64,000 nt of DNA from Clostridia bacterium (GTDB lineage Bacteria; Bacillota; Clostridia; Christensenellales; UBA1242), in assembly GCA_045655005.1 (NCBI GenBank), contig JAZOOJ010000019.1, forward strand, positions 5,416 through 69,415, in the 5' to 3' direction. Under the pieces are notes generated by a model, which made no database searches, was not told where the DNA came from, and saw nothing but the letters and a program-made list of their open reading frames with translations. Below, one piece after another: positions 34,073-64,000 of the stretch. Both the position numbers and the translations under genes were made by a program. Every line of letters starts with the position of its first letter. The first letter of the stretch is position 1.

Positions 34073-34101
34073 TTGACAAATTAAAAGTTGTGTTGTATAA
34101 T
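34073..34101 (+). promoter_or_regulatory. sigma-A consensus promoter
   Basis: TTGACA (34073-34078), 17 nt spacer, TATAAT (34096-34101). Confidence 0.7.
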
Positions 34102-34144
34102 ATGGTCACAAAAAAATAATATAATATTTCGGGGGATATATATT

Positions 34145-36316: not shown

Positions 36317-36331
36317 GTTTAATAGAAAAAT

Positions 36332-36367
36332 TACTAGGGAGAAAAATCTTCCTAGTATTTTTTTTTA
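36332..36367 (+). terminator. rho-independent terminator
   Basis: Hairpin tactaggga / tcctagta followed by a 10-nt T-run. Confidence 0.75.
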
Positions 36368-36458
36368 TTTCTTATGAAATAACTCAAAATTATTTGACTT
36401 ATATTTTTAAAATATTTAAACTAATAATGTAACATACTAATATAAAAAAATAGGTTAA

Positions 36459-39678: not shown

Positions 39679-41220
39679 ATGCTAAGCAATAAACCAAAGA
39701 GTTTTCGTCCATTTAATACCATTTTAATGATGGCATTGGGTTTGGGCAGTAAAATCACAAGTGTTTTATTTAAAATAGTTTTGATTATAATAATAGGAAC
39801 GGTCGGTATTGGTTATTACCAATTGGCCTTTCCTTTATTTGTCTTTTTATTTTCGATTTCGTCAGTTGGGATTGGAACTACGCTTACTATGCAAATAGCC
39901 GAAAATGGTTGGAGAGAAACGCTTCAAAATGGTGGCTTTCAATACGCAAAAAAATCAACGTATGTCGTTTCTTTAATTTCTAGCATTTTGTTAGTATTAA
40001 TATCGCCATTTGTATCAAAAGTGCAAGGGAACACTGATATAATATACATTTATTATAGCGTTGCAATTGCTATTGTTTCGGTGTCAATATTGACTTTTTA
40101 TAGGGCGGTTTTGCGTGGAAATAAATTGATTAAAGCCTATGCCGTTTCTGACATTATTGAGCAGTTCTCTAAATTGATTTTGGCTGTAATTTTTTCTTTT
40201 TTGTTTGTAAAATGGGGTGAAATATATGCTGTAATGGGCGTATTTATAGGGATTTCACTGAGTGCATTATTAACGCTTATTTATATTAAAATTATTTTGT
40301 CTAAACTTCCTTCAGACGAAAAGACTCCAGATTTTTGCATATTATTTGACAAATCTAAATTTTTAAAATCATCATTTATTGCGGGGTTATCGTCGGTTTT
40401 ATTGCCATTTGTGCAAATTATAGATTCTATTGTTGTAGTTAGAATTTTGACTTTAATTGGATTTGGGCAGATTGAAGCGACCTCGCTATTTGGTCTTTCA
40501 AGAGGTAATATTTCGGCGCTTTTAAATTTGCCTAATACAATAATTGTGGCAATAGAGTTTTTATTGTTGCCTGATTTATTAAAAGTAAAGACAAAAAATG
40601 AAATTATAAAAAAATGTAGGGTTACACTGTCTTTTGCTTTAGCACTTGGCGTATTTGTTGGTGCAATTTATTTTGCTTTTAGCAGTGAAATTTTGACGGT
40701 AGTATATAGAAATTCTTTTGATGGAATGGATAAAAGCATAGCCGTTAATTTGTTGAAAATTGGAGCAGTGTCAGTTATATTTTCATCTCTTTCACAAATT
40801 TTAGCAGTGGTTTTACAGGGAATAAAGAAATTGCATTTGCCAATTATTTCATTAACAATAGCATCAATTTTAAAGATTGTATTTGAAATTATTTTTATTA
40901 GGTATTTGGGAATATATGGTGCAGAGTTATCTAATGTTTTGTTTTATTTAACTCTTGTGGTTAGTAATGGAATATTTTTAATAAATAATAAGGTTTATTT
41001 TGGAAGTCTTCTTAATTTGGCAATAATGATTTCAATTTCTCTTTGGGTTTTATTAACAAAAGTGGTATATAGTTTGATTGCTTATAAAGTTAATTTTATA
41101 TTTGCAATAATACTTGCAAGTGTTATGACTTCTATGGTAGTAATAGCGTTTGGATTGATGATTTCTAGTAAACTTAAAAAGAAAAAATTTCAAAGAAAAA
41201 ATTTTTATAGTCAAGTATAA
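39679..41220 (+). CDS. MOP-superfamily flippase (polysaccharide biosynthesis / SpoVB-MurJ-like)
   Basis: 513 aa with about 14 TM segments. The length and hydrophobicity pattern are typical of Wzx/SpoVB proteins. No diagnostic motif was checked. Confidence 0.5.
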   Translation: MLSNKPKSFRPFNTILMMALGLGSKITSVLFKIVLIIIIGTVGIGYYQLAFPLFVFLFSISSVGIGTTLTMQIAENGWRETLQNGGFQYAKKSTYVVSLISSILLVLISPFVSKVQGNTDIIYIYYSVAIAIVSVSILTFYRAVLRGNKLIKAYAVSDIIEQFSKLILAVIFSFLFVKWGEIYAVMGVFIGISLSALLTLIYIKIILSKLPSDEKTPDFCILFDKSKFLKSSFIAGLSSVLLPFVQIIDSIVVVRILTLIGFGQIEATSLFGLSRGNISALLNLPNTIIVAIEFLLLPDLLKVKTKNEIIKKCRVTLSFALALGVFVGAIYFAFSSEILTVVYRNSFDGMDKSIAVNLLKIGAVSVIFSSLSQILAVVLQGIKKLHLPIISLTIASILKIVFEIIFIRYLGIYGAELSNVLFYLTLVVSNGIFLINNKVYFGSLLNLAIMISISLWVLLTKVVYSLIAYKVNFIFAIILASVMTSMVVIAFGLMISSKLKKKKFQRKNFYSQV

Positions 41221-45734: not shown

Positions 45735-46838
45735 ATGTCTGCTTTAAAAATTGTACAATTTGGTTGTGGCAAAATGAGTGTTTATACTATGCGCTACGTT
45801 TATGAAAAAGGTGCTAAGATTGTTGGGGCTTTTGATATTGATGAGGGGAAGGTTGGAAAAGATATTTCAGAAATTATGGGTGCCGAAAAACCTATGGGTG
45901 TTAAAATCCAACATGCGTCTAAATTTGAAGAATTTTTAATGAAGAAACAACCAGATGCTGTTATTGTAACAACTATGAGTTTGTTAAGTGATGTGGGCGA
46001 TGCTCTTTTGACTTGTGCAAAGTGCGGGGTTAACGCAATTACAACTTGCGAAGAGGCGTTCTTCCCTCAAAATAGTAATCCAAAATTATTTAAGAAAATT
46101 GATAAACTTGCGAAGGAAAATGGGTGTACTATTTGCGGTTCGGGTTATCAAGATGTATTCTGGGGTAATTTAATGTATTTACTTGCAGGCGCAACACATA
46201 AAATTACAAGAATTGTTGGAAAAAGTAGTTATAATGTAGAAGACTATGGCATTGCACTTGCACGTGCACATGGGTCTGGATTGAATTTAAAAGAATTTGA
46301 TGAACAAATTGCGTCTGCTGATAACATTAGCGAAGAAGAACGTGCGAAAGTTATAAATGCAGGCGAATTTATGCCAAGTTATATGTGGAACGTTAATGGT
46401 TGGCTTGCCAGCAAACTTGGATTAAAAGTTGTTTCTCAAACTCAAAAATGCGTACCACAAGTTGCAAATAAAGATATTTATAGTTCTACTTTAAATTTAA
46501 CAATCCCAAAAGGCTGTGCAACTGGTATGAGTGCTGTAGTTACAACAAAGACTGCAGAGGGTATTGAAATTGTCAGTGAGTGTATTGGAAAGGTTTATGA
46601 CGAAACCGAATGTGACTGTAACGACTGGACTGTTGAGGGCGAACCTTCTACAAGAGTGGTTATTGAAAGACCTCAAACAGTTGAACTTACTTGTGCTACA
46701 ATTGTAAACAGATTGCCTGAACTTATTGCAAGTCCCGCAGGTTATTATACAACAGAAAATATGCCAGAGAATTTCCCAAAGATGGTTGCTTTGGATAAAT
46801 ATCTTTGTGAATGTGACGATTGCGACTGCGATTGTTAA
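45735..46838 (+). CDS. DapB-like NAD(P)-binding oxidoreductase (amine dehydrogenase-like family) with a Cys/Asp-rich C-terminal tail
   Basis: Strong AGGAGG RBS. The N-terminal Rossmann-like segment is KIVQFGCGKMS. The overall resemblance to the 2,4-diaminopentanoate dehydrogenase-type family is from memory. The protein ends in YLCECDDCDCDC. Confidence 0.4.
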   Translation: MSALKIVQFGCGKMSVYTMRYVYEKGAKIVGAFDIDEGKVGKDISEIMGAEKPMGVKIQHASKFEEFLMKKQPDAVIVTTMSLLSDVGDALLTCAKCGVNAITTCEEAFFPQNSNPKLFKKIDKLAKENGCTICGSGYQDVFWGNLMYLLAGATHKITRIVGKSSYNVEDYGIALARAHGSGLNLKEFDEQIASADNISEEERAKVINAGEFMPSYMWNVNGWLASKLGLKVVSQTQKCVPQVANKDIYSSTLNLTIPKGCATGMSAVVTTKTAEGIEIVSECIGKVYDETECDCNDWTVEGEPSTRVVIERPQTVELTCATIVNRLPELIASPAGYYTTENMPENFPKMVALDKYLCECDDCDCDC

Positions 46839-48710: not shown

Positions 48711-49658
48711 TTATTGATTTTGTTCATCGGTGTTACATTTATTACAAGTAGTTATCATCTCAATGTATCTTCTTTTTATTTCTTTAATGATTATTTCTTT
48801 GTTTTTGATTATAAATTCGTGTTCAGTAGAGTAGTCGCAAAGAGAAAGTTCATCATATCTTTCATACAACATCACATAGTCGTTAAATATCTTTTCAGAG
48901 GTTGCGTCTATGTCGAAATCTTGAGGGATAATATTACTGTTTATAATGCAATTCTGGAAGTTTTTATCGTTTTGGAAGTGTTGGTCACGTAATTGAGAGA
49001 GTATATGCATTGCGGTATATCTTGCATCAAATTCTATTGGGAAAATGTAATTTTTGCGTACATAGTTTATTTCAACATTTTCGTTTTTTAATTGGTTAAA
49101 AATAGAATTGAATGTCATAGTAAATATCATTATTGCATTTTGTTCGTTCGGTTCAATTTGTCCACTTAGAAATAGTGTCCAAAAGTAACTTTGAAAAACG
49201 TGTTGGTTCTCGTGCAAGATGGTTTCAATTAATTCGAAATGAATATTCTTTATGCTGCCCATTTGCGAGAAATATTCGGTTGAGTTTAAAGAAATGTATT
49301 TTTGCATAAAGGCATATAAATATTCTTGATATTCATCGTGAGGGGTGGAGCCTTGGTAGGTGTTATAAAAATTCCATAATGTTTCTAAGTGGTTTTTGTC
49401 AAAACAATCAATATTTAGATTAAGTATGGTTTCAATTCGTTTCTTGTTGAAAATTATAGTTTTGCTTTGATTAGTGACCTTGCCAGATGCACCAAAAGCG
49501 TTCATTTCTTCAAAACGAATATCTGGTTCAAAAGGTATGTTGTGTAATTCGTAATTTGCCTTCGTAATAATTGCCAATTGTGTTGCAAGTTGGTCATAGT
49601 TAATTGGGAATGTAAAGTTTTTAATAAAATCGGCACACAAATTAATTAAATCTTGCAT
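48711..49658 (-). CDS. Hypothetical protein with an HExxH motif (putative zinc metallopeptidase-like)
   Basis: 315 aa, rich in N/I/F/Y/Q, with no signal peptide. ETILHENQHVFQ contains HExxH, and a possible third ligand lies in PIEFDARY about 55 aa downstream. AGGA RBS. Confidence 0.5.
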   Translation of the reverse strand: MQDLINLCADFIKNFTFPINYDQLATQLAIITKANYELHNIPFEPDIRFEEMNAFGASGKVTNQSKTIIFNKKRIETILNLNIDCFDKNHLETLWNFYNTYQGSTPHDEYQEYLYAFMQKYISLNSTEYFSQMGSIKNIHFELIETILHENQHVFQSYFWTLFLSGQIEPNEQNAIMIFTMTFNSIFNQLKNENVEINYVRKNYIFPIEFDARYTAMHILSQLRDQHFQNDKNFQNCIINSNIIPQDFDIDATSEKIFNDYVMLYERYDELSLCDYSTEHEFIIKNKEIIIKEIKRRYIEMITTCNKCNTDEQNQ

Positions 49659-49887
49659 AATTGTTTTCCTTTTAAGTGTAAGTTATGCTCAATGCGAAAA
49701 AGAGTTGAGCTTTTTAATGCTACCATACTAAAAGTATAAGTATAAATATGTAAAAATGCAAGTAGATATGTTAAAATTGGTGTTCGTTTATAAAATTTTT
49801 CAAAAATTAATTTTGTATCGTTTTGATTTGACACAGGCAGTGCTTATTATATAAGATATATCTATACGAAAATTAAAGGAGAATGAT

Positions 49888-50895
49888 ATGATAAAGAAAG
49901 TTTTAAATAAATTTTTGGCATTTTGTTTAACTGTGCCATGTGCGTTTGCTTTAACCGCATGTAAAGAGGAGGTTCCGCCAGCAACACCACCGAGCTCAGA
50001 ACCTAGTGCAGAGACACCGGTGGCACCTCCAACAACTCCGCCAGCAGAAACACCAGTAACACCACCAGCAGACAACCCAGCAACACAATTAACTTTTGAT
50101 GTTTGGGACGGAACGGTTGGAGTCGTTTCTGATCCAGTCGAAGGAGTTATTACTATTGATTCAGCAGCAGAATTTGCAGCGTTTGCTGAAGATGTTAATT
50201 GTGGCAATGAATATGTGGGTATTACAATTAAGTTAACTTGTAACATTGACTTAAATAATCAAGAGTGGACTCCAATCGGCTTTGGTTCATCAAATGCATA
50301 TGGTATACCTGATGGTAATTCTTTATGGTTTGATGGAAATTTTGACGGAGAAGGACATACAATTAAAAATTTAAAAATTACAACATTTGAGGGTGGCGGT
50401 ATTGAGAGCCAAACATCAGCTTCAGGTGTTGCTTTGTTTGGTCATACTTTTAATGCTTCAATTGAAAACCTAATTGTTGATACTGCAGAAGTTGAAGGGA
50501 ATCACTTTGTTGCAGCTGTAGTTGGGTTTGCGATTGGAACAGATGTTGAAAATGTAACAGTTAAGAATGCTGAAATAAGTTGCGTGTATGATAACGGAGA
50601 TGAGAGTGGAGATAAAGCAGGTGCAGTTGTTGCCTTTATTACTGATTCAGAAGATGAAGAAGGAAGTGTTAAGAATTGTACAGTTAGCAATTCAACTGTT
50701 GATGCAGACAGAGATGCGGGACAAGTGATTGGTTGTATTGGTAAAATAGTTGGTAATGATGTTGAACTTGAAAATAATAGTGTCACAAATGTTACTGTTT
50801 CTTATAACGGAGATATTGAAAATAAACATTCTAACAACTCTAATACACATATTAACAATGATATAATTGGTAGAGATGCAAGACTTGAACAATAA
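49888..50895 (+). CDS. Surface lipoprotein with Pro/Thr linker and GLUG/beta-helix-like module
   Basis: Lipobox FALTAC. Linker PPATPPSSEPSAETPVAPPTTPPAETPVTPPADNP. The following segment, NQEWTPIG ... FDGNFDGEGHTIKNLKI ... VAAVVGFA, is paralogous to the 34145 gene. Confidence 0.65.
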   Translation: MIKKVLNKFLAFCLTVPCAFALTACKEEVPPATPPSSEPSAETPVAPPTTPPAETPVTPPADNPATQLTFDVWDGTVGVVSDPVEGVITIDSAAEFAAFAEDVNCGNEYVGITIKLTCNIDLNNQEWTPIGFGSSNAYGIPDGNSLWFDGNFDGEGHTIKNLKITTFEGGGIESQTSASGVALFGHTFNASIENLIVDTAEVEGNHFVAAVVGFAIGTDVENVTVKNAEISCVYDNGDESGDKAGAVVAFITDSEDEEGSVKNCTVSNSTVDADRDAGQVIGCIGKIVGNDVELENNSVTNVTVSYNGDIENKHSNNSNTHINNDIIGRDARLEQ

Positions 50896-52068: not shown

Positions 52069-52153
52069 TCATATTATACTATTAAATTTGTTGCGATTTA
52101 GTTTAAAATATTGTACAATAAAATGAGAATAACTATAAAAATTGGAGAATCTT

Positions 52154-54829
52154 ATGGGTTGGCTTACAAATTTAGATAACAAAAGAAGTTTGAAAAAACT
52201 ACAAAAGATAGCCGATGAAATCGATTCATTGGAAGATAAATATTTGAATATGTCAGATGAAGAACTGGCTAATCAAACAAATGTATTAAAAGAAAGATTA
52301 AAGACTGGTGAAACACTTGATGATATTTTGGTTGATGCCTTTGCTGTTGTGCGTGAAGCAAGCACAAGAGTTTTGCATATGCGTCATTTTAATGTGCAAT
52401 TGCTTGGTGGAATTTGCTTGCATCAAGGCAGAATTGCAGAAATGAGAACTGGTGAAGGAAAGACTTTAATATCTACACTTCCTGCCTATTTAAATGCACT
52501 AAGTGGTAAACCTGTTCACATTGTAACAGTTAACGAATATCTTGCAAAAAGAGACGCGGAGTGGATGGGTAAAGTTCATAAATTTCTTGGACTTAGCGTT
52601 GGTTTTGTGTATTCTGCTCAAACACCAGAACAAAAAAGGCAAGCCTATGCTTGTGACATTGTTTATGGAACAAACAGCGAATTTGGTTTTGATTATTTGC
52701 GTGATAATATGGCGATTGACCGAAGGCAAATGCTTGCACGTGGGTATTCCTATGTTATTATCGACGAAATTGATAGTATCTTGATTGATGAAGCAAGAAC
52801 TCCTCTTATTATAAGTGGACCAAGTGGTGAAAGCAGTCAAGAGTATGCTATTGCTGATAAGTTTGCTAAGAATTTAACAGAAGAAGATTATTCAATTGAC
52901 GAAAAGCAAAAGACTATTCACTTGACCGAAAGTGGTGTTGCAAAGGCTGAAAGATTTTATAATATTGCAAATTTAAGTGATGTTGATAATACTGACTTAA
53001 ATCATAATATTAACAATGCAATTCGTGCAAGATTTGTCATGAAGCGAGATAACGATTATATCGTTTCAAACGATGAAGTTTATATCGTTGATGAATTTAC
53101 CGGACGTATTATGGTTGGAAGAAGATTCAGTAATGGTCTTCACCAAGCAATTGAAGCAAAAGAAGGAGTTAAGGTTAAGGCGGAGAATAAAACTCTTGCA
53201 ACAATTACCTTGCAAAATTTCTTTAAACTTTACGAAAAGATGTCTGGTATGACAGGTACAGCACAGACCGAAGAAGGTGAATTTAGGGATATTTACGGGC
53301 TTGATGTTGTTGTAATTCCTACAAACCTTCCAATGATAAGAGTTGATGAAAATGATGAATTCTATTTTTCTCACGAAGCAAAAATTCGTGCAATCATCAA
53401 TGATATCACAAATTGTGTTGAAAGGAAACAACCGGTATTGGTTGGAACAACAACTGTTGAAAGGTCGGAAGAAATCTCAAAAATACTAAGAAGTAAAAAA
53501 ATTGCACACAATGTGTTGAATGCTAAAAATCACTTGCGTGAAGCCGAGATTGTTGCTCAAGCTGGTAAAATTGGTGCTGTAACAATCGCAACAAATATGG
53601 CTGGTCGTGGTACCGATATTTTGCTTGGCGGTAATGCTGAGTTTATGGCAAAAGAAGAGATGAAAAAGGCTGGATATTCTGACGAAATGATTGAAGAAGC
53701 AGTCTCTTATGCTCCAACAGCAGATGAAGAAATAATTAAGGCAAAACTTGAATTTCAAAAGTTCTTAGCAAAGCACAAAGAAGTTGTAAGTGTTGAAAAA
53801 GAAGAAGTTAAGGCTCTTGGTGGGCTTAGAATTATTGGTACAGAACGCCATGAAAGCAGACGTATCGACAATCAGTTAAGAGGTCGTGCAGGTCGTCAAG
53901 GCGACCCAGGCTCGTCTGTGTTCTATATTTCAGCAGATGATGACCTTGCAAGAATTTTCGGAAGTGAAAGATTGAAGAAAATGGCTTCAATGTTCAAACT
54001 TGAAGAAGATGCTTCAATCAAGATGAAATTTTTCTCAAAAAGTGTTGAAACCGCACAAAAGAAGGTTGAGGGCAGAAATTATAGTGTTCGTCGTCAAGTT
54101 GTAGAGTACGATAACGTAATGAACAAGCAACGTGAAGAGGTTTATGTTGAACGTAACAAAATCTTAGACAAAATCAGTATGCACGATAAAATTCTTGATA
54201 TGATTTCAGAGTCTGCAAGTTCAATTGTTAACCAATTTATGGGATTTGAAGAAGTTGAAGATGCTGACATTGATGGATTTAATATGGCTTTGGAACAAAG
54301 AATTATTGAGCCAGGGACTAATTTTATTACACAAGAGATGCTTGAAATAAACTCTGCAAAAGAAGTTGAGGAAGTTGTAATTGAAAAAGCACTCCAAAAG
54401 TACAAAGAAAAGACTGAGGAATTTAAAGAAAAAGGCATAAATATTGAAGATATTGAAAGACTAATTTTACTTAAAGTTTTAGACAAAAAGTGGATTTCAC
54501 ATATCGATGAAATGGACGAACTTCGTCAAGGCATTGGACTTCGTGCGTATGGAAATCAAAACCCAATAAACATTTATCAAAGAGAAGGCTTTGATATGTT
54601 TGAAGAAATGATTGAAAGTATGCGTATTGAAGTTGCTAATATTATGCTTGCTGTTAATGTTGAAGTGGGTCCTCCAAGGCCAAAAATGATGCCAAAGCGT
54701 CCATCTGCGATGGAACATTCGGCAAAAGGAACAGTAACAAACACAAAGTCTGCAACGGGCAGAAATGATGCTTGTCCTTGTGGAAGTGGTAAAAAATACA
54801 AAAACTGTTGCGGAAAAGAATCTGAATAA
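52154..54829 (+). CDS. secA: Preprotein translocase ATPase SecA
   Basis: The start is refined to ATG 52154 (GGAG RBS). Walker A MRTGEGKTL, DEAD-like IIDEIDSILIDEARTPLIISG, and a C-terminal zinc finger CPCGSGKKYKNCCG. Confidence 0.97.
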   Translation: MGWLTNLDNKRSLKKLQKIADEIDSLEDKYLNMSDEELANQTNVLKERLKTGETLDDILVDAFAVVREASTRVLHMRHFNVQLLGGICLHQGRIAEMRTGEGKTLISTLPAYLNALSGKPVHIVTVNEYLAKRDAEWMGKVHKFLGLSVGFVYSAQTPEQKRQAYACDIVYGTNSEFGFDYLRDNMAIDRRQMLARGYSYVIIDEIDSILIDEARTPLIISGPSGESSQEYAIADKFAKNLTEEDYSIDEKQKTIHLTESGVAKAERFYNIANLSDVDNTDLNHNINNAIRARFVMKRDNDYIVSNDEVYIVDEFTGRIMVGRRFSNGLHQAIEAKEGVKVKAENKTLATITLQNFFKLYEKMSGMTGTAQTEEGEFRDIYGLDVVVIPTNLPMIRVDENDEFYFSHEAKIRAIINDITNCVERKQPVLVGTTTVERSEEISKILRSKKIAHNVLNAKNHLREAEIVAQAGKIGAVTIATNMAGRGTDILLGGNAEFMAKEEMKKAGYSDEMIEEAVSYAPTADEEIIKAKLEFQKFLAKHKEVVSVEKEEVKALGGLRIIGTERHESRRIDNQLRGRAGRQGDPGSSVFYISADDDLARIFGSERLKKMASMFKLEEDASIKMKFFSKSVETAQKKVEGRNYSVRRQVVEYDNVMNKQREEVYVERNKILDKISMHDKILDMISESASSIVNQFMGFEEVEDADIDGFNMALEQRIIEPGTNFITQEMLEINSAKEVEEVVIEKALQKYKEKTEEFKEKGINIEDIERLILLKVLDKKWISHIDEMDELRQGIGLRAYGNQNPINIYQREGFDMFEEMIESMRIEVANIMLAVNVEVGPPRPKMMPKRPSAMEHSAKGTVTNTKSATGRNDACPCGSGKKYKNCCGKESE

Positions 54830-54884: not shown

Positions 54885-54914
54885 TTGACACAAAATAATT
54901 TTGTGTGTTATAAT
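54885..54914 (+). promoter_or_regulatory. Extended -10 promoter of the 610-aa repeat protein gene, overlapped by two palindromes
   Basis: TTGACA (54885-54890), 18 nt spacer, TGtTATAAT with the -10 hexamer at 54909-54914. The palindromes are TGTCAAAaTTTGACA (54876-54890) and ACACAAAATaATTTTGTGT (54888-54906). Confidence 0.65.
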
Positions 54915-54940: not shown

Positions 54941-56773
54941 ATGGCGTTGGTATTAAATGAAGAAATGAAAGAGTGGTTAAAACCCAGGATTTCTAAAATT
55001 GCTGGTCAAATAATAACCGAGGTTGATGGTGGAGATATTAACGAAAAGTCATTTTCGCAATATAAATTTCGCTGGACGATGGACAGTTTGAAAAAATCAT
55101 TTTTTAAGCAATTTGGTGAAAGGCTTGAAAGCGAAGAAATTTTTGGGTTGTGCAAAAACTTTGTGTTAGATGAACTTAGAAGCAGGGGATTTGAAGAAGA
55201 TCGTGCACAAAATTTTGCAAGTCGTAATTTTGATATGTCTTTCAGAAGGCAGGTTGACATTGAGTCGTTAACGGTTGAGTTTGCAAGATATTTAAAGAAT
55301 GGCGGAAGTTTGAAGAATGTTTCGGCAAAGGAATTGCCAATGTATGAGCATTCTCGCTCTTTTGTAAGAAAAAGTGACGGGGAAAGTAATGATTTTGCAA
55401 GTACGGTTTTATTGGTAAAAGATTTTTACTTTAAAAATCCACAAATTTTTGAAAGTATGGGGCTTTCTGGATTGAAAGAAGAAGATTTTGTTTTTGTGCC
55501 AAAAGTTGAAAGGGTGGCGGTAAATATTCAAAATTTAACAAGTGAGGTTTGTGACTACATTCGTGCTGGTGGAAAACTTTATGGGGTGACTGCAAAATCC
55601 CTTCCGTTTTTTGAAAGGGCAAGGGGTTATCTTAGATTCCACACAGATGCAGAAGAACTTAATTTAGAACAAGCAATTGATGAGGTTAAAAACTATTATT
55701 TTTCAAACATTGCGCCAAGTGAAAGCGAAGAAGAAAGACTGACAGAGAACGACTTTTTATATATGTCGATGTTTGATTACGAGAAAGCAAAAACAAGGGA
55801 GTCAAGCATTGCAAAGATGTATGAATTGGCACTTTCAAGTGTAGACGAAATGGGTAACGTTGGCAAGGTAAGACATAATCCAGAGTGGAGTGCGTCATTG
55901 TCTGCTTTGGAGTGTGGGCTTACAAGTTTGGAGTTTGTTGCGTTAATGTTTCCGGCAGATAGCGGAATGCATATAAAAAAGGGAAGGGTGCATACTGAAA
56001 AATTCACTTTAATTGGTAAAGACTTAGATGCTTTCGTTCAAAAGTTTGGCGAAAAGAATTTGATTGTGAACATTAAGAAGCACGATACGGTCTTGTATCT
56101 AAGATTATGTAACCTGGCTACGCTTTTCCCAGAGGGGTCAATCAGTCTTGGGGAATTAATGGATTTTTATGGATACAAAGATGAGGCTTGTGATTGGACT
56201 TTTGGAAGTTCAATCGATGAAAGTGATGTTATTGAAGAATTGCGAATTGTCTATGCTGAAGCAGTTCAAAGATATTTGGAAAATGGCGGAAGTCTTGAAC
56301 ATTTTGATATGCGTGTAATAAATAAAATGATGGATTTGCGTGGACAAAAGGTTAATCTTTATCACAATTTATATAAACTTGCACTAAGAAAAGGTCTTGG
56401 GCTAAGTGACTATATCAACGGCAAAGAGATTTCTCTTTATGACGCAATTGAACAAGATAATGGTGAAATTGTTGCAAGGAAAAGACGTGTTAAGGGTGTG
56501 GAAATTCCGCCACTTAGTTACGAGATTGGGTTAGGAGAGAGCAAACACTCAAAAATTGTAACAATAAAAGGTAAAGAGTATACTAACTATTTAAGGCAAA
56601 AGTTGGAAAAATTAATGCAAGAAAGCGAGATAATGAACAACCCAGAGGCTCCAAAGGAAATGAAAATAAATGAAAGGTTCAGGCTCGCTGAAATTGTGAT
56701 TGAACAAGCGGTTGCAGAGTCTGGAAGCGAAGACGCTTTGGCTGGAATTGAGAATCCGAATGCCAGTTGGTAA
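54941..56773 (+). CDS. Hypothetical soluble protein with three copies of a Y(L/I)..GG(S/K)L module
   Basis: 610 aa, AGGAG RBS 7 nt upstream, no TM segment or signal peptide. The internal repeats are listed in the findings. I recognise no family. Confidence 0.75.
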   Translation: MALVLNEEMKEWLKPRISKIAGQIITEVDGGDINEKSFSQYKFRWTMDSLKKSFFKQFGERLESEEIFGLCKNFVLDELRSRGFEEDRAQNFASRNFDMSFRRQVDIESLTVEFARYLKNGGSLKNVSAKELPMYEHSRSFVRKSDGESNDFASTVLLVKDFYFKNPQIFESMGLSGLKEEDFVFVPKVERVAVNIQNLTSEVCDYIRAGGKLYGVTAKSLPFFERARGYLRFHTDAEELNLEQAIDEVKNYYFSNIAPSESEEERLTENDFLYMSMFDYEKAKTRESSIAKMYELALSSVDEMGNVGKVRHNPEWSASLSALECGLTSLEFVALMFPADSGMHIKKGRVHTEKFTLIGKDLDAFVQKFGEKNLIVNIKKHDTVLYLRLCNLATLFPEGSISLGELMDFYGYKDEACDWTFGSSIDESDVIEELRIVYAEAVQRYLENGGSLEHFDMRVINKMMDLRGQKVNLYHNLYKLALRKGLGLSDYINGKEISLYDAIEQDNGEIVARKRRVKGVEIPPLSYEIGLGESKHSKIVTIKGKEYTNYLRQKLEKLMQESEIMNNPEAPKEMKINERFRLAEIVIEQAVAESGSEDALAGIENPNASW

Positions 56774-56787: not shown

Positions 56788-56823
56788 GATAGGTAGAAAC
56801 AATATGTTTCTACCTATTTTTTT
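56788..56823 (+). terminator. rho-independent terminator
   Basis: Hairpin gataggtagaaac / gtttctacctat followed by TTTTTTT. Confidence 0.85.
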
Positions 56824-56912
56824 GATTCCGCAAGGTAAATTAAAAATTTACACAAATATTTTAAATGGGCTATTCAAAGTTGACTTTATTAATAATTAAT
56901 TTTATAATAGTA

Positions 56913-56941
56913 TTGATTTAGTTGACATAGTATGGTATAAT
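56913..56941 (+). promoter_or_regulatory. Extended -10 promoter of the hairpin-protein / giant-protein operon
   Basis: TTGATT (56913-56918), 17 nt spacer, TGgTATAAT with the -10 hexamer at 56936-56941. Confidence 0.6.
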
Positions 56942-56968: not shown

Positions 56969-58105
56969 ATGAATTTTGATAGGGGGGATTTTATCAAAAT
57001 GACAGAGGCTGAAAAATATGTCAAGGCGATAGAGTTTCAGAGATTATATGTCGCCGTTGATACAGGTTTTGATGCATCAAAGAACGAAGAAGACAAAATT
57101 AAATTGGTTGCGGGAAAACTTGGAATAACCGAAGATGAGGGTAAAAAACTTGCCGATTTTATCAAAGACAAAGCTGGTGGATTAACAAATGAAAATGCAT
57201 TAATTCAAGCACGAGAAGATTATTGGAAAAATCTAAACCAAGAGGAAAGCGATGCTAAAACGCAACTTAAAGACAATATAGACAACCAAGTTGTTGAAAA
57301 AGCCGAACAAGAAGCTTTAAAGGCTGGTAAGGTCGCAAAGGTTGCAAAACGCAAAAGCAGAATTAACATAGTTTTTAAACTTGTATTGCTTGGATTAGTT
57401 ATTGGGGCACTTGCAGGGGGTTCACTTGCAATTATTTCGCCAATAATTAATGCCGTGGCACTTTTGCTTGGTGGACTAAGCGGTGCAACGCTTATGGGAC
57501 TTGGTTGTGGGGTTTGGCTTTACAGCGATAAGATAAAAAAATGGTGGGAAAATAAAGACAAGAAAAGAGGTCAAGGCAAGGACAGATATTTAGGAAATTA
57601 CTTCCAAGAAGAAGATGAAAAAGCTCAAAAAGAATTAAGCAAGAAAATTGCGGAGTGGAACAGTGAGAAGGGTAAAAGAACAGCCCTTCAAACAACATTT
57701 AATGACCGCCAGCAAAAAAGGCAAGACGCAGATAATGAGTTTAACAATCATCCGGCAAATAAAAATGCTAAGAATGCGGTGGATAATTTAATTCAAAGAA
57801 TGACAGCCGAGTGGCAGAATGTTCAAACGGCGGATCCAGGGTGGGCAAATTCATATGGCAAGGACTGGCTGAAATATGGAATTGCAAGACTTAAAAAGCA
57901 ACTTGCGATGGGAAATATCACAGACAGCAATTATGTGACGGATCTTCAACCATATGAAGACTTTTTTATCGGCTCGGGTGGGATTTTTGACCCAGCAAGT
58001 GCGATTCGTGCAGACTTTGATGCGGCAAACAGAGTATTGTCACCTGGAACAGACCACGGTAAGGACAAAGCGCCGAATGACCCAGATTTCTACGAGTTAA
58101 CTTAA
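56969..58105 (+). CDS. Hypothetical Gly/Ala-zipper membrane-hairpin protein, short paralogue of the giant protein's N-terminal region
   Basis: 378 aa from ATG 56969. A more likely start is ATG 56999, which has GGGGGGA 10 nt upstream. The layout is a soluble N-terminal region, a hydrophobic block LVLLGLVIGALAGGSLAIISPIINAVALLLGGLSGATLMGLGCGVWL (about 57362-57523), and then a helical charged region. Confidence 0.75.
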   Translation: MNFDRGDFIKMTEAEKYVKAIEFQRLYVAVDTGFDASKNEEDKIKLVAGKLGITEDEGKKLADFIKDKAGGLTNENALIQAREDYWKNLNQEESDAKTQLKDNIDNQVVEKAEQEALKAGKVAKVAKRKSRINIVFKLVLLGLVIGALAGGSLAIISPIINAVALLLGGLSGATLMGLGCGVWLYSDKIKKWWENKDKKRGQGKDRYLGNYFQEEDEKAQKELSKKIAEWNSEKGKRTALQTTFNDRQQKRQDADNEFNNHPANKNAKNAVDNLIQRMTAEWQNVQTADPGWANSYGKDWLKYGIARLKKQLAMGNITDSNYVTDLQPYEDFFIGSGGIFDPASAIRADFDAANRVLSPGTDHGKDKAPNDPDFYELT

Positions 58106-58146
58106 ACAAAACTTTGGTAAAAATATAAATTAAAGGAGATTTAATT

Positions 58147-61100
58147 ATGGCAACATATTATTTCGATGGAAATGTTGGTAGCTTAACTGAATTTAAAAGG
58201 CTTTATGACTTTTTACATCAATATAACCTGTATATGAAAGAACATCCAACAGCAACAATTAATGATGTTCGAAACAACCTTAGATATCCAGGACTTGGCA
58301 GTGCGTTGTACGGAGCAACAAAGGTTAATGATGAAATTGCAAACATCAAAAGATTGACTGGTGGGGTTATGCCAACTCTGGCTGACGAACAAGATTTTCT
58401 TGACCAATTTAAGACTTTTGCAGAAAACAAGAAAAATGCTGTTGAAACAGAGAGAACCGATGCAAATGAAGCATTTACAGACCCTTCGCGTGGCATTGGC
58501 GGGAAGTCGCTTGAAGATATTGAATTAGATGCGGAAGACGCTAAGACCGAACTTAGAGATTGCAGATGGGGAAGATCTGGCATTTGGGCTGGCATATTAA
58601 CTGCTGCCGTTCTTGTTGCAGGTGCTGTTTTACTTCCGGGTGCAGCGTTCCTTGCTGGTGGTGCTTTGGCTGTTCCAGCATTCGCAGGTAATGCAGTTGC
58701 ACTTGGTGCACTTGGTGGTGGTGGCTTTTTAGCACATAGAGCCAGCAAGAAACTTAATAAAAGAATTGAAGACGCAAAGAAAGCACGAAAACTTTATCGA
58801 AGACATGAAAAAAGAATCGATAATGCAAAAACAAGGCAAACGGACGCAGAAAACGATTTTAACAATTTTAATAGACACTTCCGTGGTTTTGAAACAGTTG
58901 ATTCGTTATACAATACAAAAGTAAATCAAGATATCGCTGATATTGGTGCAAGACTTCACGCGATAGAATCTACATTACAAACCGAACTAAACGGATGTGT
59001 CCCAGACAATTCAAGAATGGGTTATGCTGAGGCTGTAAGAGTGAGAGCACAAGCGCAGGCAGAATTGAGAAATGTACAAACCGCAATAACTAACTACAAT
59101 AATCTAAGAAGTTCATCAAGCCTTGATTTAACACTATATATGACTGAAATGACAAACGCAATAACTGCAGAAACAGCATTTAATGGTCATAACCTTACAC
59201 CAGCAGTATCTTTTTTAGATAGAGCAGAAGCACAGCAACGAGCGGTAATTACGGCAACTAATGCAGTTGAAGCAAAATTCAATGCAGAAAAGCCTGTGTT
59301 AAGTGGATTGACATTGGGTGGAATAGAAAGAAGTGAAGCAAGAGATGCTTTTAATGATTTAAAGGATGCTGTTGATTTCGTAGAAGGCGTTTTCGCCGGA
59401 TTTACAACAACTATGTCCAATGATGCAATTTTCAGAGATAATGCAACATTTAAAAGAGACTATGAGGACGAGGCAAAAGAAACTTACTTCCAATACAGAG
59501 TTACTTATTCACAAGCTTGGCAAAAATTTACTGAATCGGTTGCGGTTGCTGCAAGGATAAATAGTAATGTGGGATCGGCTAACGGGTTAACTACAGCCGA
59601 GAAGAATGATTATGACAGAGTTGCGAGGGACTTGGCTGGTTACAACACTCAAATTGCAACAATGAATACAGATGCAACCCGAAGAGACGAGTGCGAAAGG
59701 TATGTTGTTGGTGCAGAGATAAAAGCAGGATTGATTCGTGCCTATTCTGAATTACAGAAGGCAAGAGCTGCAGGTGATGTTACAAAAATTACAGATATTG
59801 AAGCAGAAATCGTTCATATTAAGGCATTAGAGACAGCATATGCAAATCCTGGTGCTGACATTGTAGCAATAAGAAACACTCTTGTAACATATATGGCAAC
59901 TATTGAAACATTACTCGCTGGTAGATTTGTTGTTTTGCCATCGGGCGAAAGAGTTCTTGAATCAAACTACGATAGCAGAATTGGTGAATTAGTTCGTGAC
60001 CTTGATCCGCTTGTTGAAAGATCAAAACAGCTAGGTGATGACATGGAGAATCGCAGAGGTGTTTATAGTGATAAAGTTCGTGAAAGAAGTATTGCGAAAA
60101 CCGATATAAGAAATACACTTGCGGATATCCAAGCATTAATAAATGCAAAACGTAGCATAGTCTCTTCGTATGATGAGTACAGAACCGAACGTGATGCTGC
60201 AAACATAGAATTAGCGACAGTCGATCCAGCAGAAAAAAAATATACAATAGACAGTGTGAATTATTACACCGAAATGGACTTTATTGCGTTAAGGTCAAGT
60301 AAAAGCACTGAACTGCTAAATAAAGCACGCGAAGAAGCTGCATCTTTTAATTCAATCCAAACAGAGTTCCCAAATGGTGCTCCTGACACGACTGATCCAG
60401 ATTATACAACCAAAATTTCAAGATACAATCAATTGGTGAATGAGAGAAACACAAAAGCTTCTGAACTTGCTACTCTAGCCACAGAATTGGAGACAATCAA
60501 TAATGCTTTTGGTTCAGCAAAAGACCCTGGGATTGATACTAGGGTGAGTGCTGCAAAAGCAAGAGCAACTAATCTTGTTCAAATACCTGGTGTTAAAGTA
60601 TTTAGAGAATCCGATATTAATGCTGAAATGCAAACAATAAGAGAGGCGTTGGTTGGACCACCTGGCAGTGTTGACGGAGTTTTAAAGCAAGCACAAGATT
60701 TGTATACTGATATGCAGACTGCAACTGGCACAGAATATACTGATAAATTGGCTGAAAGAAGAGATAAATTTATTGAAATGGGCAGGGGTATTAATATTCT
60801 TAATGCATTAGTTGCTGAGAAACAACGCATTGATTCGTCATACTCATACAGCGGAAGCGAAGAAGAAAAAGCAATTCAAGCTATGCAAGCCGAATATGCA
60901 AAAGGAATGCCAGCTGAAAAAACATCAGAACCAACGGTTAAAGTTGGCTCGGTTGAATATACACAAACACAACTTGAAGCAGAGATTCAAAAACAACTTG
61001 GTGAATTAGACGGAATAGTTGCTGATGCAAAAACATCAAGAACGGCTACATTGCCTACAAAAACCGACCCAGCAGAATACACTACTGAGTACAACAGACG

Positions 61101-64000
61101 TCAGAAATTGATTACTGAAGATGGAATCACGGAAAGGCTTACAGTCATTCAAGGTTTAATTAAAGGGTGGACAGATGCAACCCCAGCTGGTTTTGGTCGA
61201 ACAGCAAAATCAGAATGGACAACAAAAATTACTGAGGCAGAAACTGAAAGAGATGCCACAGTATCACCAACACCAACCAAAACTTATACAGATGCAGATG
61301 TTCAAAATAAATTGCAAGAGCTTGAAAATGCTTGTAAAGAAGAACATAATGCAATGCAGAAAGTACAAAACAAGTCATCAGACAGGACTTCAACCGATTA
61401 TTCTGACGCAAAAACAGAAAGAGATGCGGCTGTTCAAAAGATTAACACTATCATTAGCGAACTTAGAACGATGAATGCCACATTTAGTCCTGAAAGAGAT
61501 GATATTAAAAATGCTATTGCGGAAGCAGAGAAGAAAGCTTCAAACTTGGTTGAAATTGAAAATGTGGCTCCGTTCAGAGAGTCTGAGTTTAAGCAAGCAG
61601 TTGTGGACAGAACTACTACACTTCAAGACAAAATGAGGGATCTTGAAAATGGTAAAGATCCAGGCTCGGGATTGCCAATAAAAAGATCTCATGAAAGTTA
61701 TACTGCTGATGAAATTAAAGCACTAACGGGAATAAAAGTAAGATTAGAGGCTGTGAAGTCTGAATATGAAAAACGTGCCGACAAAGAACAAAAGGTTGTT
61801 GATACTGCGCAACAAACCATTGAAAAAGCACAGCAAGTAATTGACCAATACAACGCTTCACATACAACAACTTATGAGTATGCCGGCAAGACTTATACAG
61901 AAGGTGAGATTAAACAATTAATTGCTGAGAAAAAACAAGAACTTGACAGGCAGTTGATTGTTGAGGAAGGTGCGTTTTATATACTTAGCACACAAAAAGA
62001 AATAGGCATTACTAATCCTGAATACATTAACAATGCGATAACGGCCAGAAAAAATGCATGTACAAAGATAGAACGACTTGCTGATGAATTGGAAAAAATT
62101 AATTCTGTGTATCCTGACAGCGAAATACCAGACAAGGTTGCAAAGGCAAGAGCACAAGCATCACCACATGTTGAAATTGAAAATGTACCGCTATTCAGAG
62201 AGGCTGAACTTGAAAGGGTTATACAAGATAATAAAAGGGCATTACTTGGTGCTCTGCAAGAAGAAGAAGCTTGTTTAGTAGAATTAACTGGACTTATAAA
62301 CAAAGGTGGTAAGAAGGCTGAGGGAAGCCAAGAATATATAGATGCAAAGAATAACAGACAACAATGTTGCGATGAAATAAAGAAGTTGGCTGATGCATTG
62401 GATGCACTGGATGCAAAACGCAAAACACCAGAAGTTGATTTGAAAAAAGATATTACCGATCCTGCAAGGGCAAGAGCAAGCGCACTTATTGAATGGGATG
62501 TTGTAAGAGTTGCAAATGCAGATGGTAAAAAGACCGCCAGGTTGATGTATCCGTGTAGAGAAAGTGAACTATCTGAGAACTTGAACCTTTACAAAAATAG
62601 CGTAACAAACGAAATTAAAAATGTAAAAACAGCAAATGAAGACGAAAAAAGTGATAAACTTCTTGTATTAAAGTATAAAAGTGCAATGCTTGAACAACTT
62701 TACAATGAAAAAATTAATAGAGCAACTGATAAAGATTCTGAGAGAGAAAGTCTTAAAGAATATTTGGAAGTAATTGAAAAGGCAAAGCAATTCATTAAAG
62801 ACAATGAAATAGTAGTTGTCAGCGAAAGTGCAAATCCAGAGCCTCCGGTTGAACAAGAACAAGAAGATCATGCTGGGGACGATGAAGATGAGGAATCTGA
62901 TGAAAGAAGAGTTGCCGAAGAAGAAGCAATGTGGGAAGCACATGGTTCAAATATTGTGCCACAACCAACTGAAGAGGAAATTGCTGCAAATTTAGAGGAA
63001 GGATTTAACCTTATTGAGGAAGAACGTCAAAGGGCGGAAGATGAAGAAGAAAGGCTTGATGATGAATATTATTCAGCACTTGAAGCGGAATTGAATGAAG
63101 AGACTGATGATGCTGAGCATGACGATGATTATTATGGCGAAGACGATAATGAAGCGTTAGATGCTCACGAAGGCGAGAAGGATAGACATAGCAAAAGAAG
63201 AAAAGACACAATATACGCAGGACAAAGAGACGCAAAAAATGCTCCATTCGTTGAAGCAAAGAGAAAAGCTAAGAAATTAGAAGCCGAACGTAGATATGAG
63301 GATATACTTGCAAGACAACAGGCCGAAGCGGAACAAAGAGAAATCGCTAACGCAGAAAGGGCTAATGCACAAGCCGAGGCACTTGCTGAAAGTGAAAGAC
63401 AAAAAGCCGAGGCTGAAAGAATTGCTGAGCAACAAAGACAAGAAGCAGAAGCAAAAGCTTTGGCTGATAAACAACAACAAGCAGACGCAAAACTTGAAGC
63501 GGAAATTATGGCGAAAGATAGGCTTCGTGAAATTGAAGATAGGGCTAAAACTTTGGCTGAATATGTCGATGAGGCAAGAAGTGTTTATACCGTTGAAAAT
63601 GCGACAGATTATTTAACAATACAAGCAGAAATTGAAGACTTAAAAGCTATGCATGGAATTGCTTATGATAAAGAGACTGGAAGACTTGTTTCAAACGGTG
63701 GAAGAGATTATGAAGACCGTGAAGAAGCACAAGAGAAAATCCGAAGAAAAACTCAAATTTTAAGGGATAGGGCGTTTGAAAAACAGAAAGAAAACAGAAG
63801 TGAGATTCTTGCACTTATTAATGAAGAAGCACAAAGACTACTTGTTCTTCTAAAAGAACAACAAGCATACGCAAAGGAAAATGGTGATGAAGATTTCTCT
63901 TGGACAGAGTATCCGCTTGATGTGTTAAAAGACGTTCAAGAAGAGTTAAAGAGAGATGTTGAAGCAGAAGCAAGAGCTGGTGTTGAACAAGAGAGAAAAG
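58147..64000 (+). CDS. Giant membrane-anchored, predominantly helical repeat protein (more than 1,950 aa, 3' end outside the window)
   Basis: ATG 58147 has AGGAG at 58134-58138. My hand translation of + frame 1 is uninterrupted to nt 63999. This ORF is absent from the ORF track because it has no stop in the window. Every listed + ORF in this span is in frame 2, and the minus-strand ORFs are low-complexity shadows. Confidence 0.85.
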   Translation, partial: MATYYFDGNVGSLTEFKRLYDFLHQYNLYMKEHPTATINDVRNNLRYPGLGSALYGATKVNDEIANIKRLTGGVMPTLADEQDFLDQFKTFAENKKNAVETERTDANEAFTDPSRGIGGKSLEDIELDAEDAKTELRDCRWGRSGIWAGILTAAVLVAGAVLLPGAAFLAGGALAVPAFAGNAVALGALGGGGFLAHRASKKLNKRIEDAKKARKLYRRHEKRIDNAKTRQTDAENDFNNFNRHFRGFETVDSLYNTKVNQDIADIGARLHAIESTLQTELNGCVPDNSRMGYAEAVRVRAQAQAELRNVQTAITNYNNLRSSSSLDLTLYMTEMTNAITAETAFNGHNLTPAVSFLDRAEAQQRAVITATNAVEAKFNAEKPVLSGLTLGGIERSEARDAFNDLKDAVDFVEGVFAGFTTTMSNDAIFRDNATFKRDYEDEAKETYFQYRVTYSQAWQKFTESVAVAARINSNVGSANGLTTAEKNDYDRVARDLAGYNTQIATMNTDATRRDECERYVVGAEIKAGLIRAYSELQKARAAGDVTKITDIEAEIVHIKALETAYANPGADIVAIRNTLVTYMATIETLLAGRFVVLPSGERVLESNYDSRIGELVRDLDPLVERSKQLGDDMENRRGVYSDKVRERSIAKTDIRNTLADIQALINAKRSIVSSYDEYRTERDAANIELATVDPAEKKYTIDSVNYYTEMDFIALRSSKSTELLNKAREEAASFNSIQTEFPNGAPDTTDPDYTTKISRYNQLVNERNTKASELATLATELETINNAFGSAKDPGIDTRVSAAKARATNLVQIPGVKVFRESDINAEMQTIREALVGPPGSVDGVLKQAQDLYTDMQTATGTEYTDKLAERRDKFIEMGRGINILNALVAEKQRIDSSYSYSGSEEEKAIQAMQAEYAKGMPAEKTSEPTVKVGSVEYTQTQLEAEIQKQLGELDGIVADAKTSRTATLPTKTDPAEYTTEYNRRQKLITEDGITERLTVIQGLIKGWTDATPAGFGRTAKSEWTTKITEAETERDATVSPTPTKTYTDADVQNKLQELENACKEEHNAMQKVQNKSSDRTSTDYSDAKTERDAAVQKINTIISELRTMNATFSPERDDIKNAIAEAEKKASNLVEIENVAPFRESEFKQAVVDRTTTLQDKMRDLENGKDPGSGLPIKRSHESYTADEIKALTGIKVRLEAVKSEYEKRADKEQKVVDTAQQTIEKAQQVIDQYNASHTTTYEYAGKTYTEGEIKQLIAEKKQELDRQLIVEEGAFYILSTQKEIGITNPEYINNAITARKNACTKIERLADELEKINSVYPDSEIPDKVAKARAQASPHVEIENVPLFREAELERVIQDNKRALLGALQEEEACLVELTGLINKGGKKAEGSQEYIDAKNNRQQCCDEIKKLADALDALDAKRKTPEVDLKKDITDPARARASALIEWDVVRVANADGKKTARLMYPCRESELSENLNLYKNSVTNEIKNVKTANEDEKSDKLLVLKYKSAMLEQLYNEKINRATDKDSERESLKEYLEVIEKAKQFIKDNEIVVVSESANPEPPVEQEQEDHAGDDEDEESDERRVAEEEAMWEAHGSNIVPQPTEEEIAANLEEGFNLIEEERQRAEDEEERLDDEYYSALEAELNEETDDAEHDDDYYGEDDNEALDAHEGEKDRHSKRRKDTIYAGQRDAKNAPFVEAKRKAKKLEAERRYEDILARQQAEAEQREIANAERANAQAEALAESERQKAEAERIAEQQRQEAEAKALADKQQQADAKLEAEIMAKDRLREIEDRAKTLAEYVDEARSVYTVENATDYLTIQAEIEDLKAMHGIAYDKETGRLVSNGGRDYEDREEAQEKIRRKTQILRDRAFEKQKENRSEILALINEEAQRLLVLLKEQQAYAKENGDEDFSWTEYPLDVLKDVQEELKRDVEAEARAGVEQERK
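61549..61587 (+). repeat. Intragenic repeat copy A (encodes VEIENVAPFRESE)
   Basis: gttgaaattgaaaatgtggctccgttcagagagtctgag matches copy B at 32 of 39 positions by hand alignment. Confidence 0.8.
62170..62208 (+). repeat. Intragenic repeat copy B (encodes VEIENVPLFREAE)
   Basis: gttgaaattgaaaatgtaccgctattcagagaggctgaa is in the same frame as copy A, 621 nt downstream. Confidence 0.8.

Follow-up and report, generated by a model that had tools for sequence, protein, structure and literature searches.

We have identified a giant protein-coding gene in a Clostridia bacterium (order Christensenellales), at one end of a 64,000-nucleotide (nt) stretch of contig JAZOOJ010000019.1 that was analyzed as a whole and that we refer to as the window. 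The giant open reading frame (ORF), which starts at position 58147 and runs through the window edge, is a real and intact gene, and its product, together with that of the gene directly upstream (the partner), constitutes an unannotated and very small family to which no described family or fold was matched. The family plan is fixed, and consists of an N-terminal domain (N-domain), a hydrophobic hairpin with a basic flank, a helical module of about 400 amino acids (aa; the N-module), a variable middle, and a C-terminal module (C-module) of about 370 aa. From this architecture we infer, tentatively and at somewhat less than an even chance, that the giant is a membrane-anchored cytoplasmic helical scaffold or hub, and not an enzyme, a toxin, a secreted adhesin or part of a phage. 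A first-pass annotation of this DNA had put the locus forward as a candidate for an undescribed system, which is plausible as far as a new family with an upstream partner gene is concerned, but which goes further than the data in implying a function or mechanism.

Reality and extent of the giant gene

Machine translation of frame +1 from 58147 to 63999 gives 1,951 codons with zero stops, in agreement with the open-ended ORF of more than 1,950 codons that had earlier been translated by hand. The other five frames contain between 52 and 252 stops across the same interval, and an open run of this length would arise by chance with a probability near 1e-65 at the local base composition, or 1e-74 at that of the whole window. 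The Shine-Dalgarno sequence AGGAG at 58134-58138 (+ strand), reported previously and read here directly from the sequence, lies 8 nt before the ATG within the 41-nt gap that follows the partner gene. The ORF list available for the window shows only short out-of-frame and antisense ORFs at this locus because the program that made it skips ORFs running off the end of its source, which is the explanation the first-pass annotation had offered for the omission.

The window holds the 5' 74% of the gene (58147-64000, + strand, as are all of the genes and protein segments described below unless stated; codons 1-1951 of 2,631). The complete product is present in the protein database as P0001, a protein of 2,631 aa encoded on a 169.7-kb contig, and the stop codon of the giant gene is predicted about 2,042 nt past the window edge. 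The codon-position composition of the frame is typical for coding sequence, and the GC content at third codon positions (GC3) of 0.24 is close to the 0.25 of secA and the 0.26 of rpoB; the gene therefore looks native. The closest orthologue, at locus L005, has 80% amino-acid identity to the giant over the first 500 residues with a synonymous divergence (dS) of 0.31 and a ratio of nonsynonymous to synonymous divergence (dN/dS) of 0.33, and the comparison with locus L006 gives a dN/dS of 0.30. We also note that the L005 orthologue has an in-frame TAA (L005:4721-4723) at the position of window codon 561, where the window has GAA. The alignment goes on past this TAA in the same frame to residue 885, and it is either a nonsense polymorphism (a pseudogene) or an assembly error.

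A family without described relatives

No family match came from NCBIfam, PHROGs, PADLOC or Pfam (searched to E<=10), either with the giant alone or with each family member, and PDB sequences, searched both with phmmer and with family profiles, gave no match. No enzymatic or toxin domain was found in the giant in any library searched, and a motif scan of it found no Walker A, HExxH, CxxC, lipobox or twin-arginine motif, which bears out the earlier remark that no catalytic, nucleotide-binding or secretion motif could be recognized. An Rfam scan of the region returned nothing besides a tRNA-Asn, and a literature search returned nothing on the giant-protein family.

AlphaFold2 was run on family alignments and produced two models, one of residues 1-1200 and one of the last 631 residues. 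Both were compared with PDB using Foldseek, and the 1-1200 model also with BFVD, with nothing found at E<0.03. The best PDB E-values are 0.14 for the N-terminal model and 1.1 for the C-terminal model, and the non-significant fold matches, all to helical proteins of a generic rod or scaffold type, include talin, vinculin, alpha-catenin, alpha-actinin, SMC arms, the dynein tail and designed helical repeats. The Foldseek comparison of structure models that had been recommended at the outset thus yielded no significant match in PDB or BFVD, and the protein, which could not previously be assigned to a named family, remains unassigned by sequence, profile and fold. An in-frame stop, or a match to a tape measure, an SMC/EzrA-like scaffold or an adhesin repeat, had been named at the outset as grounds for refutation, of the open frame in the first case and of novelty in the others; all of these were looked for and none was found.

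Several individual candidates were considered and rejected. A phage tape measure has no counterpart in PHROGs at E<=0.01 or among Pfam tape-measure families even at E<=10, and the context also does not fit, the neighbors being comFC, secA and orphan genes, with prfB, tsaD, ctsR and mcsB at the related locus L003. An SMC/MukB-like protein is not supported, there being no Walker A motif and no SMC Pfam match, and the SMC-arm fold matches have E>1. EzrA gave no Pfam, NCBIfam or PDB sequence match, and the anchor of the giant is a hairpin that follows a 140-aa domain. Flotillin/SPFH proteins were rejected because no family member has a Band_7 match at E<=10. Holin-X (PF07332) similarity is seen in two members at E 0.16-0.54 (10.8-12.4 bits against a 28.4-bit cut-off) and is confined to the hairpin; moreover the protein is 2,631 aa long, and there is no endolysin-family match among the neighboring proteins scanned. 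Polymorphic toxins of the LXG or Rhs types were rejected because C-module identity among members, at 35-41%, is on a par with that of the N-module, and there is no LXG, Rhs or toxin Pfam match.

The more general proposal that the gene is a prophage tape measure or some other mobile-element remnant deserves comment because long helices and a Gly/Ala-rich hydrophobic segment are common in tape measures, and because the top BFVD fold matches are tape measures, albeit non-significant ones (E 0.036-1, probability <=0.2, TM-score ~0.08). However, besides the absence of a PHROG or Pfam tape-measure match, tblastn against 50,697 phage and 72,556 plasmid records gave no match, and no relatives of the N-module, the C-module or the partner were found in IMG/VR. 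The chromosomal position between secA and prfB is conserved with no phage genes nearby, and GC3 matches that of host genes. We consider this proposal effectively refuted.

Recovery of the family depended strongly on the search method. A word-indexed protein search of 5.8 billion clusters matched only P0001 itself and one partial protein from a metagenome-assembled genome (MAG), annotated as 'hypothetical protein [Clostridia bacterium]', and missed known members; the family was recovered only when residues 1-1200 served as query in an exhaustive HMMER scan over 1.84 billion representatives, which gave six proteins in all. Two of these, P0004 (1,847 aa) and P0005 (1,252 aa), are full-length relatives and the others are fragments. 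A further copy, L006, nearly identical to the fragment P0002, was reached via its partner gene. Pattern-based scans of GTDB species genomes, JGI metagenomes and IMG/VR found no relatives. Fewer than ten members are known, all from Clostridia MAGs or gut metagenome assemblies with sample labels such as XIEF21 and TONG22, which we take to be ruminant-gut study tags, and most of those found are truncated fragments on contigs of 2.6-7 kb. The family was found only in one narrow clade of Clostridia from the ruminant gut, which are uncultured and probably form spores.

Anatomy of the giant protein

The lengths of the members span 1,252 to 2,631 aa. Between full-length members, identity is 31-35% in the N-module and 35-41% in the C-module and the middle differs, and the window protein has every feature that defines the family, including a partner at 56999-58105. 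The giant begins with a soluble helical N-domain of 142 residues (58147-58572), as indicated by the family alignment and the AlphaFold2 model. It carries no signal peptide, and its start, MAT(F/Y)xF...SEF...Y.F.H.YN.Y, is conserved throughout the family alignment. AlphaFold2 places helices in this part of the protein at residues 13-32, 38-44, 57-71, 78-111 and 122-158.

The N-domain is followed by an uncharged, Gly/Ala-rich hydrophobic stretch of 54 residues (144-197; 58576-58737), which corresponds to the stretch of roughly 50 residues described from the first reading of the sequence and which on hydropathy is predicted to form a two-helix membrane hairpin. It is 30% Ala and 22% Gly, has no charged residues and contains a Pro-Gly near its middle; the Kyte-Doolittle score of 19-mers exceeds 1.5 between residues 143 and 168. 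The stretch is 54 aa long in P0001, P0003, P0004 and P0005, and 49 aa in P0006. A strongly basic juxtamembrane segment comes next (residues 198-222; 58738-58812), with 12 K/R and three D/E in the giant, and between nine and 12 K/R are present within 25 residues after the hairpin in all five members. We read both ends of the hairpin as lying in the cytoplasm because of the positive-inside rule, because no export signal is present, and because the hydrophobic stretch is long enough for two helices; by that rule the basic segment would place the long C-terminal part in the cytoplasm.

A different topology would follow if the hydrophobic stretch were a signal-anchor that crosses the membrane an odd number of times, or once with an additional re-entrant loop, such that the giant would be a fast-evolving cell-surface protein with its repeat rod outside the cell. 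The strong divergence between close relatives, the variation in repeat number and in length, the gut habitat and the presence in the window of other large orphan proteins bearing Big_2 domains are all in keeping with a surface protein, and the latter half of the stretch, which spans about 30 residues and includes Pro and Asn, is readable as a re-entrant loop. However, the run of K/R after the stretch in every member strongly disfavors translocation, and there is neither a signal peptide or lipobox nor any export signal in the 140-aa N-domain. The sole LPXTG-pattern match in the giant, LPGAA at residue 163, is inside the hairpin, no cell-wall-binding, SLH or other domain is matched in Pfam, and no accessory-Sec or sortase genes are present among the window or locus proteins scanned. 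We therefore regard a surface location as improbable. The more specific idea of an adhesin exported by an accessory Sec system (SecA2/SecY2) was rejected on the same grounds of signal peptide and LPXTG pattern, and because the giant is E/A/K/T-rich and not Ser-rich; as to context, the adjoining SecA is a housekeeping protein with a SEC-C tail, and prfB follows the cluster in L003.

The N-module (residues 193-620; 58723-60006) is helical and conserved, as judged by BLASTP and by comparison with P0002. BLASTP of giant residues 1 to about 590 against P0004 and P0005 gives 31-35% identity, and the most conserved block is residues 356-545 (nt 59212-59781), with invariant columns near-continuous from residue 360 to 545 in the comparison with P0002. 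In this block the proportion of nonsynonymous sites that differ (pN) is 0.18-0.20, versus 0.56-0.61 for synonymous sites (pS).

The middle of the giant contains four copies of a helical repeat of about 90 aa, which we call the R-unit and which was defined by self-comparison and a repeat hidden Markov model; its motif is A+A.AS.LVEIENV.PFRESE. Repeat 1 (residues 746-844; 60382-60678; motif A+A.A..LV.I..V..FRES; E=9e-38) was also apparent on self-comparison, and is followed by repeat 2 (residues 1077-1168; 61375-61650; E=1e-38), repeat 3 (residues 1286-1375; 62002-62271; E=4e-41), and repeat 4 (residues 1392-1495; 62320-62631; E=6e-36), which has a 14-residue insertion in the seed alignment. The R-unit counts among members are four, four, two to three, and zero. 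Beyond the repeats is a hyper-acidic, low-complexity segment rich in E, A and D (residues 1561-1800; 62827-63546) that has a net charge of -44 and includes an EA/Q/R-rich run. The only notable DNA tandem repeat in the region, a 39-nt unit present in 2.6 copies, is at 63395-63492. The C-module, the last ~370 residues of the giant, is conserved and mainly helical.

The helix-like character noted from the sequence at first reading is also seen in the AlphaFold2 models. In the 1-1200 model (mean predicted local distance difference test score, pLDDT, 70; predicted TM-score, pTM, 0.35) residues 193-1200 are nearly all helix, and the model of the last 631 residues (pLDDT 63, pTM 0.35) is mostly helix with two small beta hairpins. 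The predicted helices are 20-50 residues long, which in these models suggests bundles and not one long coil.

The partner gene

The partner gene (56999-58105) encodes a protein of 368 aa with a layout that resembles the start of the giant, consisting of a helical N-domain, a Gly/Ala-rich hairpin of about 53 residues with basic flanks, a helical C-terminal part, and an acidic-aromatic C-terminus. A partner of about 365 aa lies directly 5' of the giant in all seven loci that have upstream sequence (the window, L002, L003, L005, L006, L007 and L008); orthologues with conserved neighbors, which the first-pass annotation had suggested searching for, therefore exist. The start of the window partner is the ATG at 56999, which is preceded by a ribosome-binding site (RBS), AGGGGGGA, at 56981-56988 and agrees both with the homologues and with the database entry P0008 (368 aa); the ATG at 56969 given by the ORF lister was rejected on these three counts.

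Two tandem sigma-70-type promoter-like sites precede the partner (56880-56941), TTGACT-17-TATAAT and TTGATT-17-TATAAT, the second with a TG extension; these were found in a consensus scan with 11/12 and 10/12 matches and are consensus matches only. The 41-nt gap between the partner and the giant contains no terminator-like site, and this together with the upstream promoter-like sites suggests that the pair is probably a single operon.

The partner is a probable paralogue of the N-terminal part of the giant. An hhalign comparison of the partner with the N-module of the giant gives 94% probability and E=1e-7 over about 200 columns, and the match is colinear over the pre-hairpin helix, the hairpin and the post-hairpin helices. 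No relationship was found between the partner and the C-module of the giant. We note that the partner C-terminal tails read DPDFYELT, DEDFYEIV, EEAFWA and DGFWA (window 58082-58105 and homologues), and that an E-rich sequence with MWEA occurs twice in the giant, at residues 1595 and 1958. An acidic-aromatic motif uniting these (MWEA in the giant, DFYE or FWA in the partner) was dropped as evidence as it is inconsistent across members, and would at best be a possible docking motif.

The secA-prfB interval and its rate of change

Judged by gene order, the cluster containing the giant is a lineage-specific insertion, two to five genes in size, that separates secA from prfB; in Bacillus subtilis these two genes are adjacent. 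Gene order is comFC-secA-partner-giant in L007 and L008, and in L003 it continues from the giant through genes of 486 aa and 456 aa to prfB and tsaD, and further on to ctsR and mcsB. All relatives for which the sequence downstream of secA was recovered have the locus, and its setting is chromosomal and vertically inherited. The secA gene itself (52142-54829) belongs to the conserved upstream flank and encodes a housekeeping SecA with all SecA Pfam domains and the SEC-C zinc tail. Because of this full housekeeping architecture, and because no accessory-Sec components were seen among the window or locus proteins scanned, the adjacency to secA is positional only. The emphasis placed initially on a giant protein sitting beside secA is thus correct as to position but carries no functional weight, the cluster simply lying between secA and prfB in a relative.

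The partner-giant pair evolves much faster than its flanks, yet is under net purifying selection. Between the window and L003, SecA is 91.7% identical and ComFC 59%, with values of only 34% for the partner and 33% for the N-terminal 500 residues of the giant; for L003 against L007 the corresponding identities are 95.8%, 74%, 52% and 44%. The window SecA is 92% identical to that of L007 as well. Across the window, L003, L007 and L008 the ranges are 92-96% for SecA, 58-74% for ComFC, 34-52% for the partner and 33-44% for the giant, and the secA-prfB interval is thus a divergence hotspot.

Such a pattern raises the possibility of a conflict or defense module, in which the hairpin proteins would permeabilize the membrane upon a trigger sensed by the long helical part, as in abortive infection, or would take part in some other inter-genomic conflict. 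In favor of this are the far greater divergence of the locus than of its flanks, the variation in gene content (a 610-aa gene is present or absent), the richness of the hairpins in Gly, Ala and other small residues, and the sub-threshold Holin-X similarity of two members. Nonetheless, the holin similarity is far under threshold and involves hydrophobic residues only, PADLOC gave no defense-component match for any of five proteins tested (the giant, the partner, the 610-aa protein, and the 486-aa and 456-aa proteins of L003), and library scans found no nuclease, NTPase or other effector or sensor domain. The C-module is conserved in the same manner as the N-module and is not swapped as in polymorphic toxins, and the presence of the locus in every relative with a recovered secA downstream flank also does not favor a conflict module, which we find quite improbable.

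A role in sporulation must also be considered, with the giant as a sporulation-specific mother-cell morphogenetic or coat-associated protein. Proteins of these classes are typically lineage-specific, repetitive, of low complexity and fast-evolving, and the family is orphan, repetitive, acidic and fast-evolving; SpoIIE-like and SpoVB-like proteins are also encoded in the window, at scores below NCBIfam cut-offs. Against it, the sites upstream of the partner are near-consensus for sigma-70/sigma-A and not for sigma-E or sigma-K (on consensus match only), there is no similarity to known coat or exosporium families in Pfam or NCBIfam, and the locus is situated among vegetative housekeeping genes. 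We consider a sporulation-specific role very doubtful.

A proposed membrane-tethered scaffold

In the proposal that we favor, both ends of the hairpin would be cytoplasmic and a rod of about 2,400 residues would lie in the cytoplasm, tethered to the inner face of the membrane. The partner would associate with the giant hairpin to hairpin, their small-residue-rich helices packing together into a hetero-oligomeric anchor in the membrane. The acidic linker and the rod would then act as a non-enzymatic spacer or scaffold that keeps the C-module at a defined distance from the membrane, one that varies by lineage, and there the C-module would bind a putative cytoplasmic target.

A number of observations weigh against a tethered scaffold. 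The pTM is only 0.35 in both AlphaFold2 models, too low for the packing of the helices to be relied on, model confidence is low at the hairpin, and the topology is a prediction from the positive-inside rule. When the three pieces of the partner-giant match are compared separately the E-values are 0.007-0.017, with out-of-register controls at 0.12-0.36, and in view of these weak piecewise scores the paralogy is probable and not proven. The downstream flank of the cluster was read in L003, and the window ends inside the giant gene. Finally, the giant and partner diverge far faster than their neighbors, a pattern also typical of surface and conflict proteins and the fact that a scaffold explains least well, although helical rods do tolerate substitution.

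A broader proposal, which we think unlikely on balance, is that the giant, the partner and the further hairpin and acidic proteins seen in relatives would make up a new membrane-attached cytoskeletal or tethering apparatus specific to one clade of Clostridia from the ruminant gut. R-unit number would then determine how far from the membrane an internal structure is kept, for instance the nucleoid, the forespore, a storage granule or an internal membrane, and the giant would be a 'molecular ruler' unrelated to known cytoskeletal families.

If the scaffold proposal holds, the giant and its relatives would be an unannotated family of very large membrane-tethered scaffolds with a dedicated partner in an uncultured gut lineage, and would lengthen the short list of giant bacterial proteins without homologues by one bounded example, a secA-prfB insertion of two to five genes. 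It also raises the question of what benefit there is in having a conserved 370-aa module on a length-variable rod of 1,000-2,000 residues at the membrane. A practical point is that ORF callers that need an in-window stop, and fragmented MAG assemblies, hide giant genes.

Other genes of the locus and the window

A 610-aa orphan gene (54941-56773) is an optional member of the locus; the window, L005 and L006 have it ahead of the partner, and L003, L007 and L008 lack it. It has a 12/12 promoter match at 54885-54914 (TTGACA-18-TATAAT with a TG extension), its own RBS, and a following terminator with a 14-bp stem (56788-56818), and by these signals appears to be its own transcription unit. The protein has three internal repeats of about 65-90 aa (...YLKNGGSL...), has no match in any library searched, and is unrelated to the giant.

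Two further genes lie downstream of the giant at L003 (L003:11465-14321), followed by prfB. The 486-aa protein has an N-domain, two transmembrane (TM) helices and a basic stretch, and its N-terminus matches that of the giant weakly and in register (E 7e-4, probability 26%), with nothing similar to the partner outside the TM segment. The 456-aa protein has one hydrophobic segment and an extremely acidic tail rich in E, S, T and D.

Elsewhere in the window, the SpoIIE-like protein (8875-11151; E 1e-95) and the SpoVB-like protein (39679-41220; E 3e-27), both below the curated NCBIfam cut-offs, suggest that the lineage probably sporulates, which fits the earlier description of the organism as a spore former. 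Three consecutive large ORFs of 634, 742 and 657 aa at 32093-38432 have no NCBIfam match, and two of them, probably surface proteins, have a Big_2 Ig-like domain close to the N-terminus. A 367-aa protein encoded at 45735-46838 has an unusual Cys/Asp tail (...CECDDCDCDC). The 335-aa ORF at 49888-50895 has a lipoprotein-like N-terminus (...ALTAC) and a Pro/Thr-rich linker, and is adjoined by a 315-aa orphan at 48711-49658 (- strand); neither has a Pfam or NCBIfam match, and the antisense ORF at 49800-50246 is an apparent shadow of the Pro/Thr-rich region.

Comparison with known systems

The giant shares features with several groups of long or membrane-anchored proteins. Phage tape measures are similarly very long, helical and of variable length with Gly/Ala-rich hydrophobic segments, but for the giant such a relationship lacks sequence, profile or context support, the locus being chromosomal and between secA and prfB. 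The chlamydial Inc proteins and tethers of the reticulon, atlastin and mitofusin types have a bilobed hydrophobic hairpin of about 50 residues that leaves both termini in the cytosol, and helical or coiled-coil regions often come after it. Inc proteins reach the host membrane by type III secretion, however, and the eukaryotic tethers carry GTPase or other domains, whereas the giant has neither type III secretion nor GTPase features, and the lineages are unrelated. Flotillin (SPFH) together with NfeD also combines a hairpin anchor and EA-rich helical repeats with a small membrane-protein partner in the operon, but no Band_7/SPFH or NfeD domain was detected, and the giant is about five times larger with a hairpin that follows a 140-aa soluble domain.

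The remaining two comparisons are with bacterial scaffolds. EzrA is a membrane-anchored spectrin-like division regulator of the Firmicutes, about 560 aa long, in which the only TM helix is N-terminal and has no soluble domain before it. It has no partner paralogue, acidic region or R-units, but resembles the giant in being a non-enzymatic and poorly conserved Firmicutes protein, with a membrane tether on the N-terminal side and a cytoplasmic rod of stacked helical bundles, as we infer also for the giant. The HubP/FimV polar hub proteins of the Proteobacteria carry a periplasmic LysM domain at the N-terminus and one TM helix. Neither a FimV nor a LysM domain was detected in the giant and the analogy is one of architecture only, but in those terms it extends to a membrane anchor, a large, acidic, repeat-bearing cytoplasmic region of variable length, a conserved C-terminal module, and a proposed role as a landmark or scaffold.

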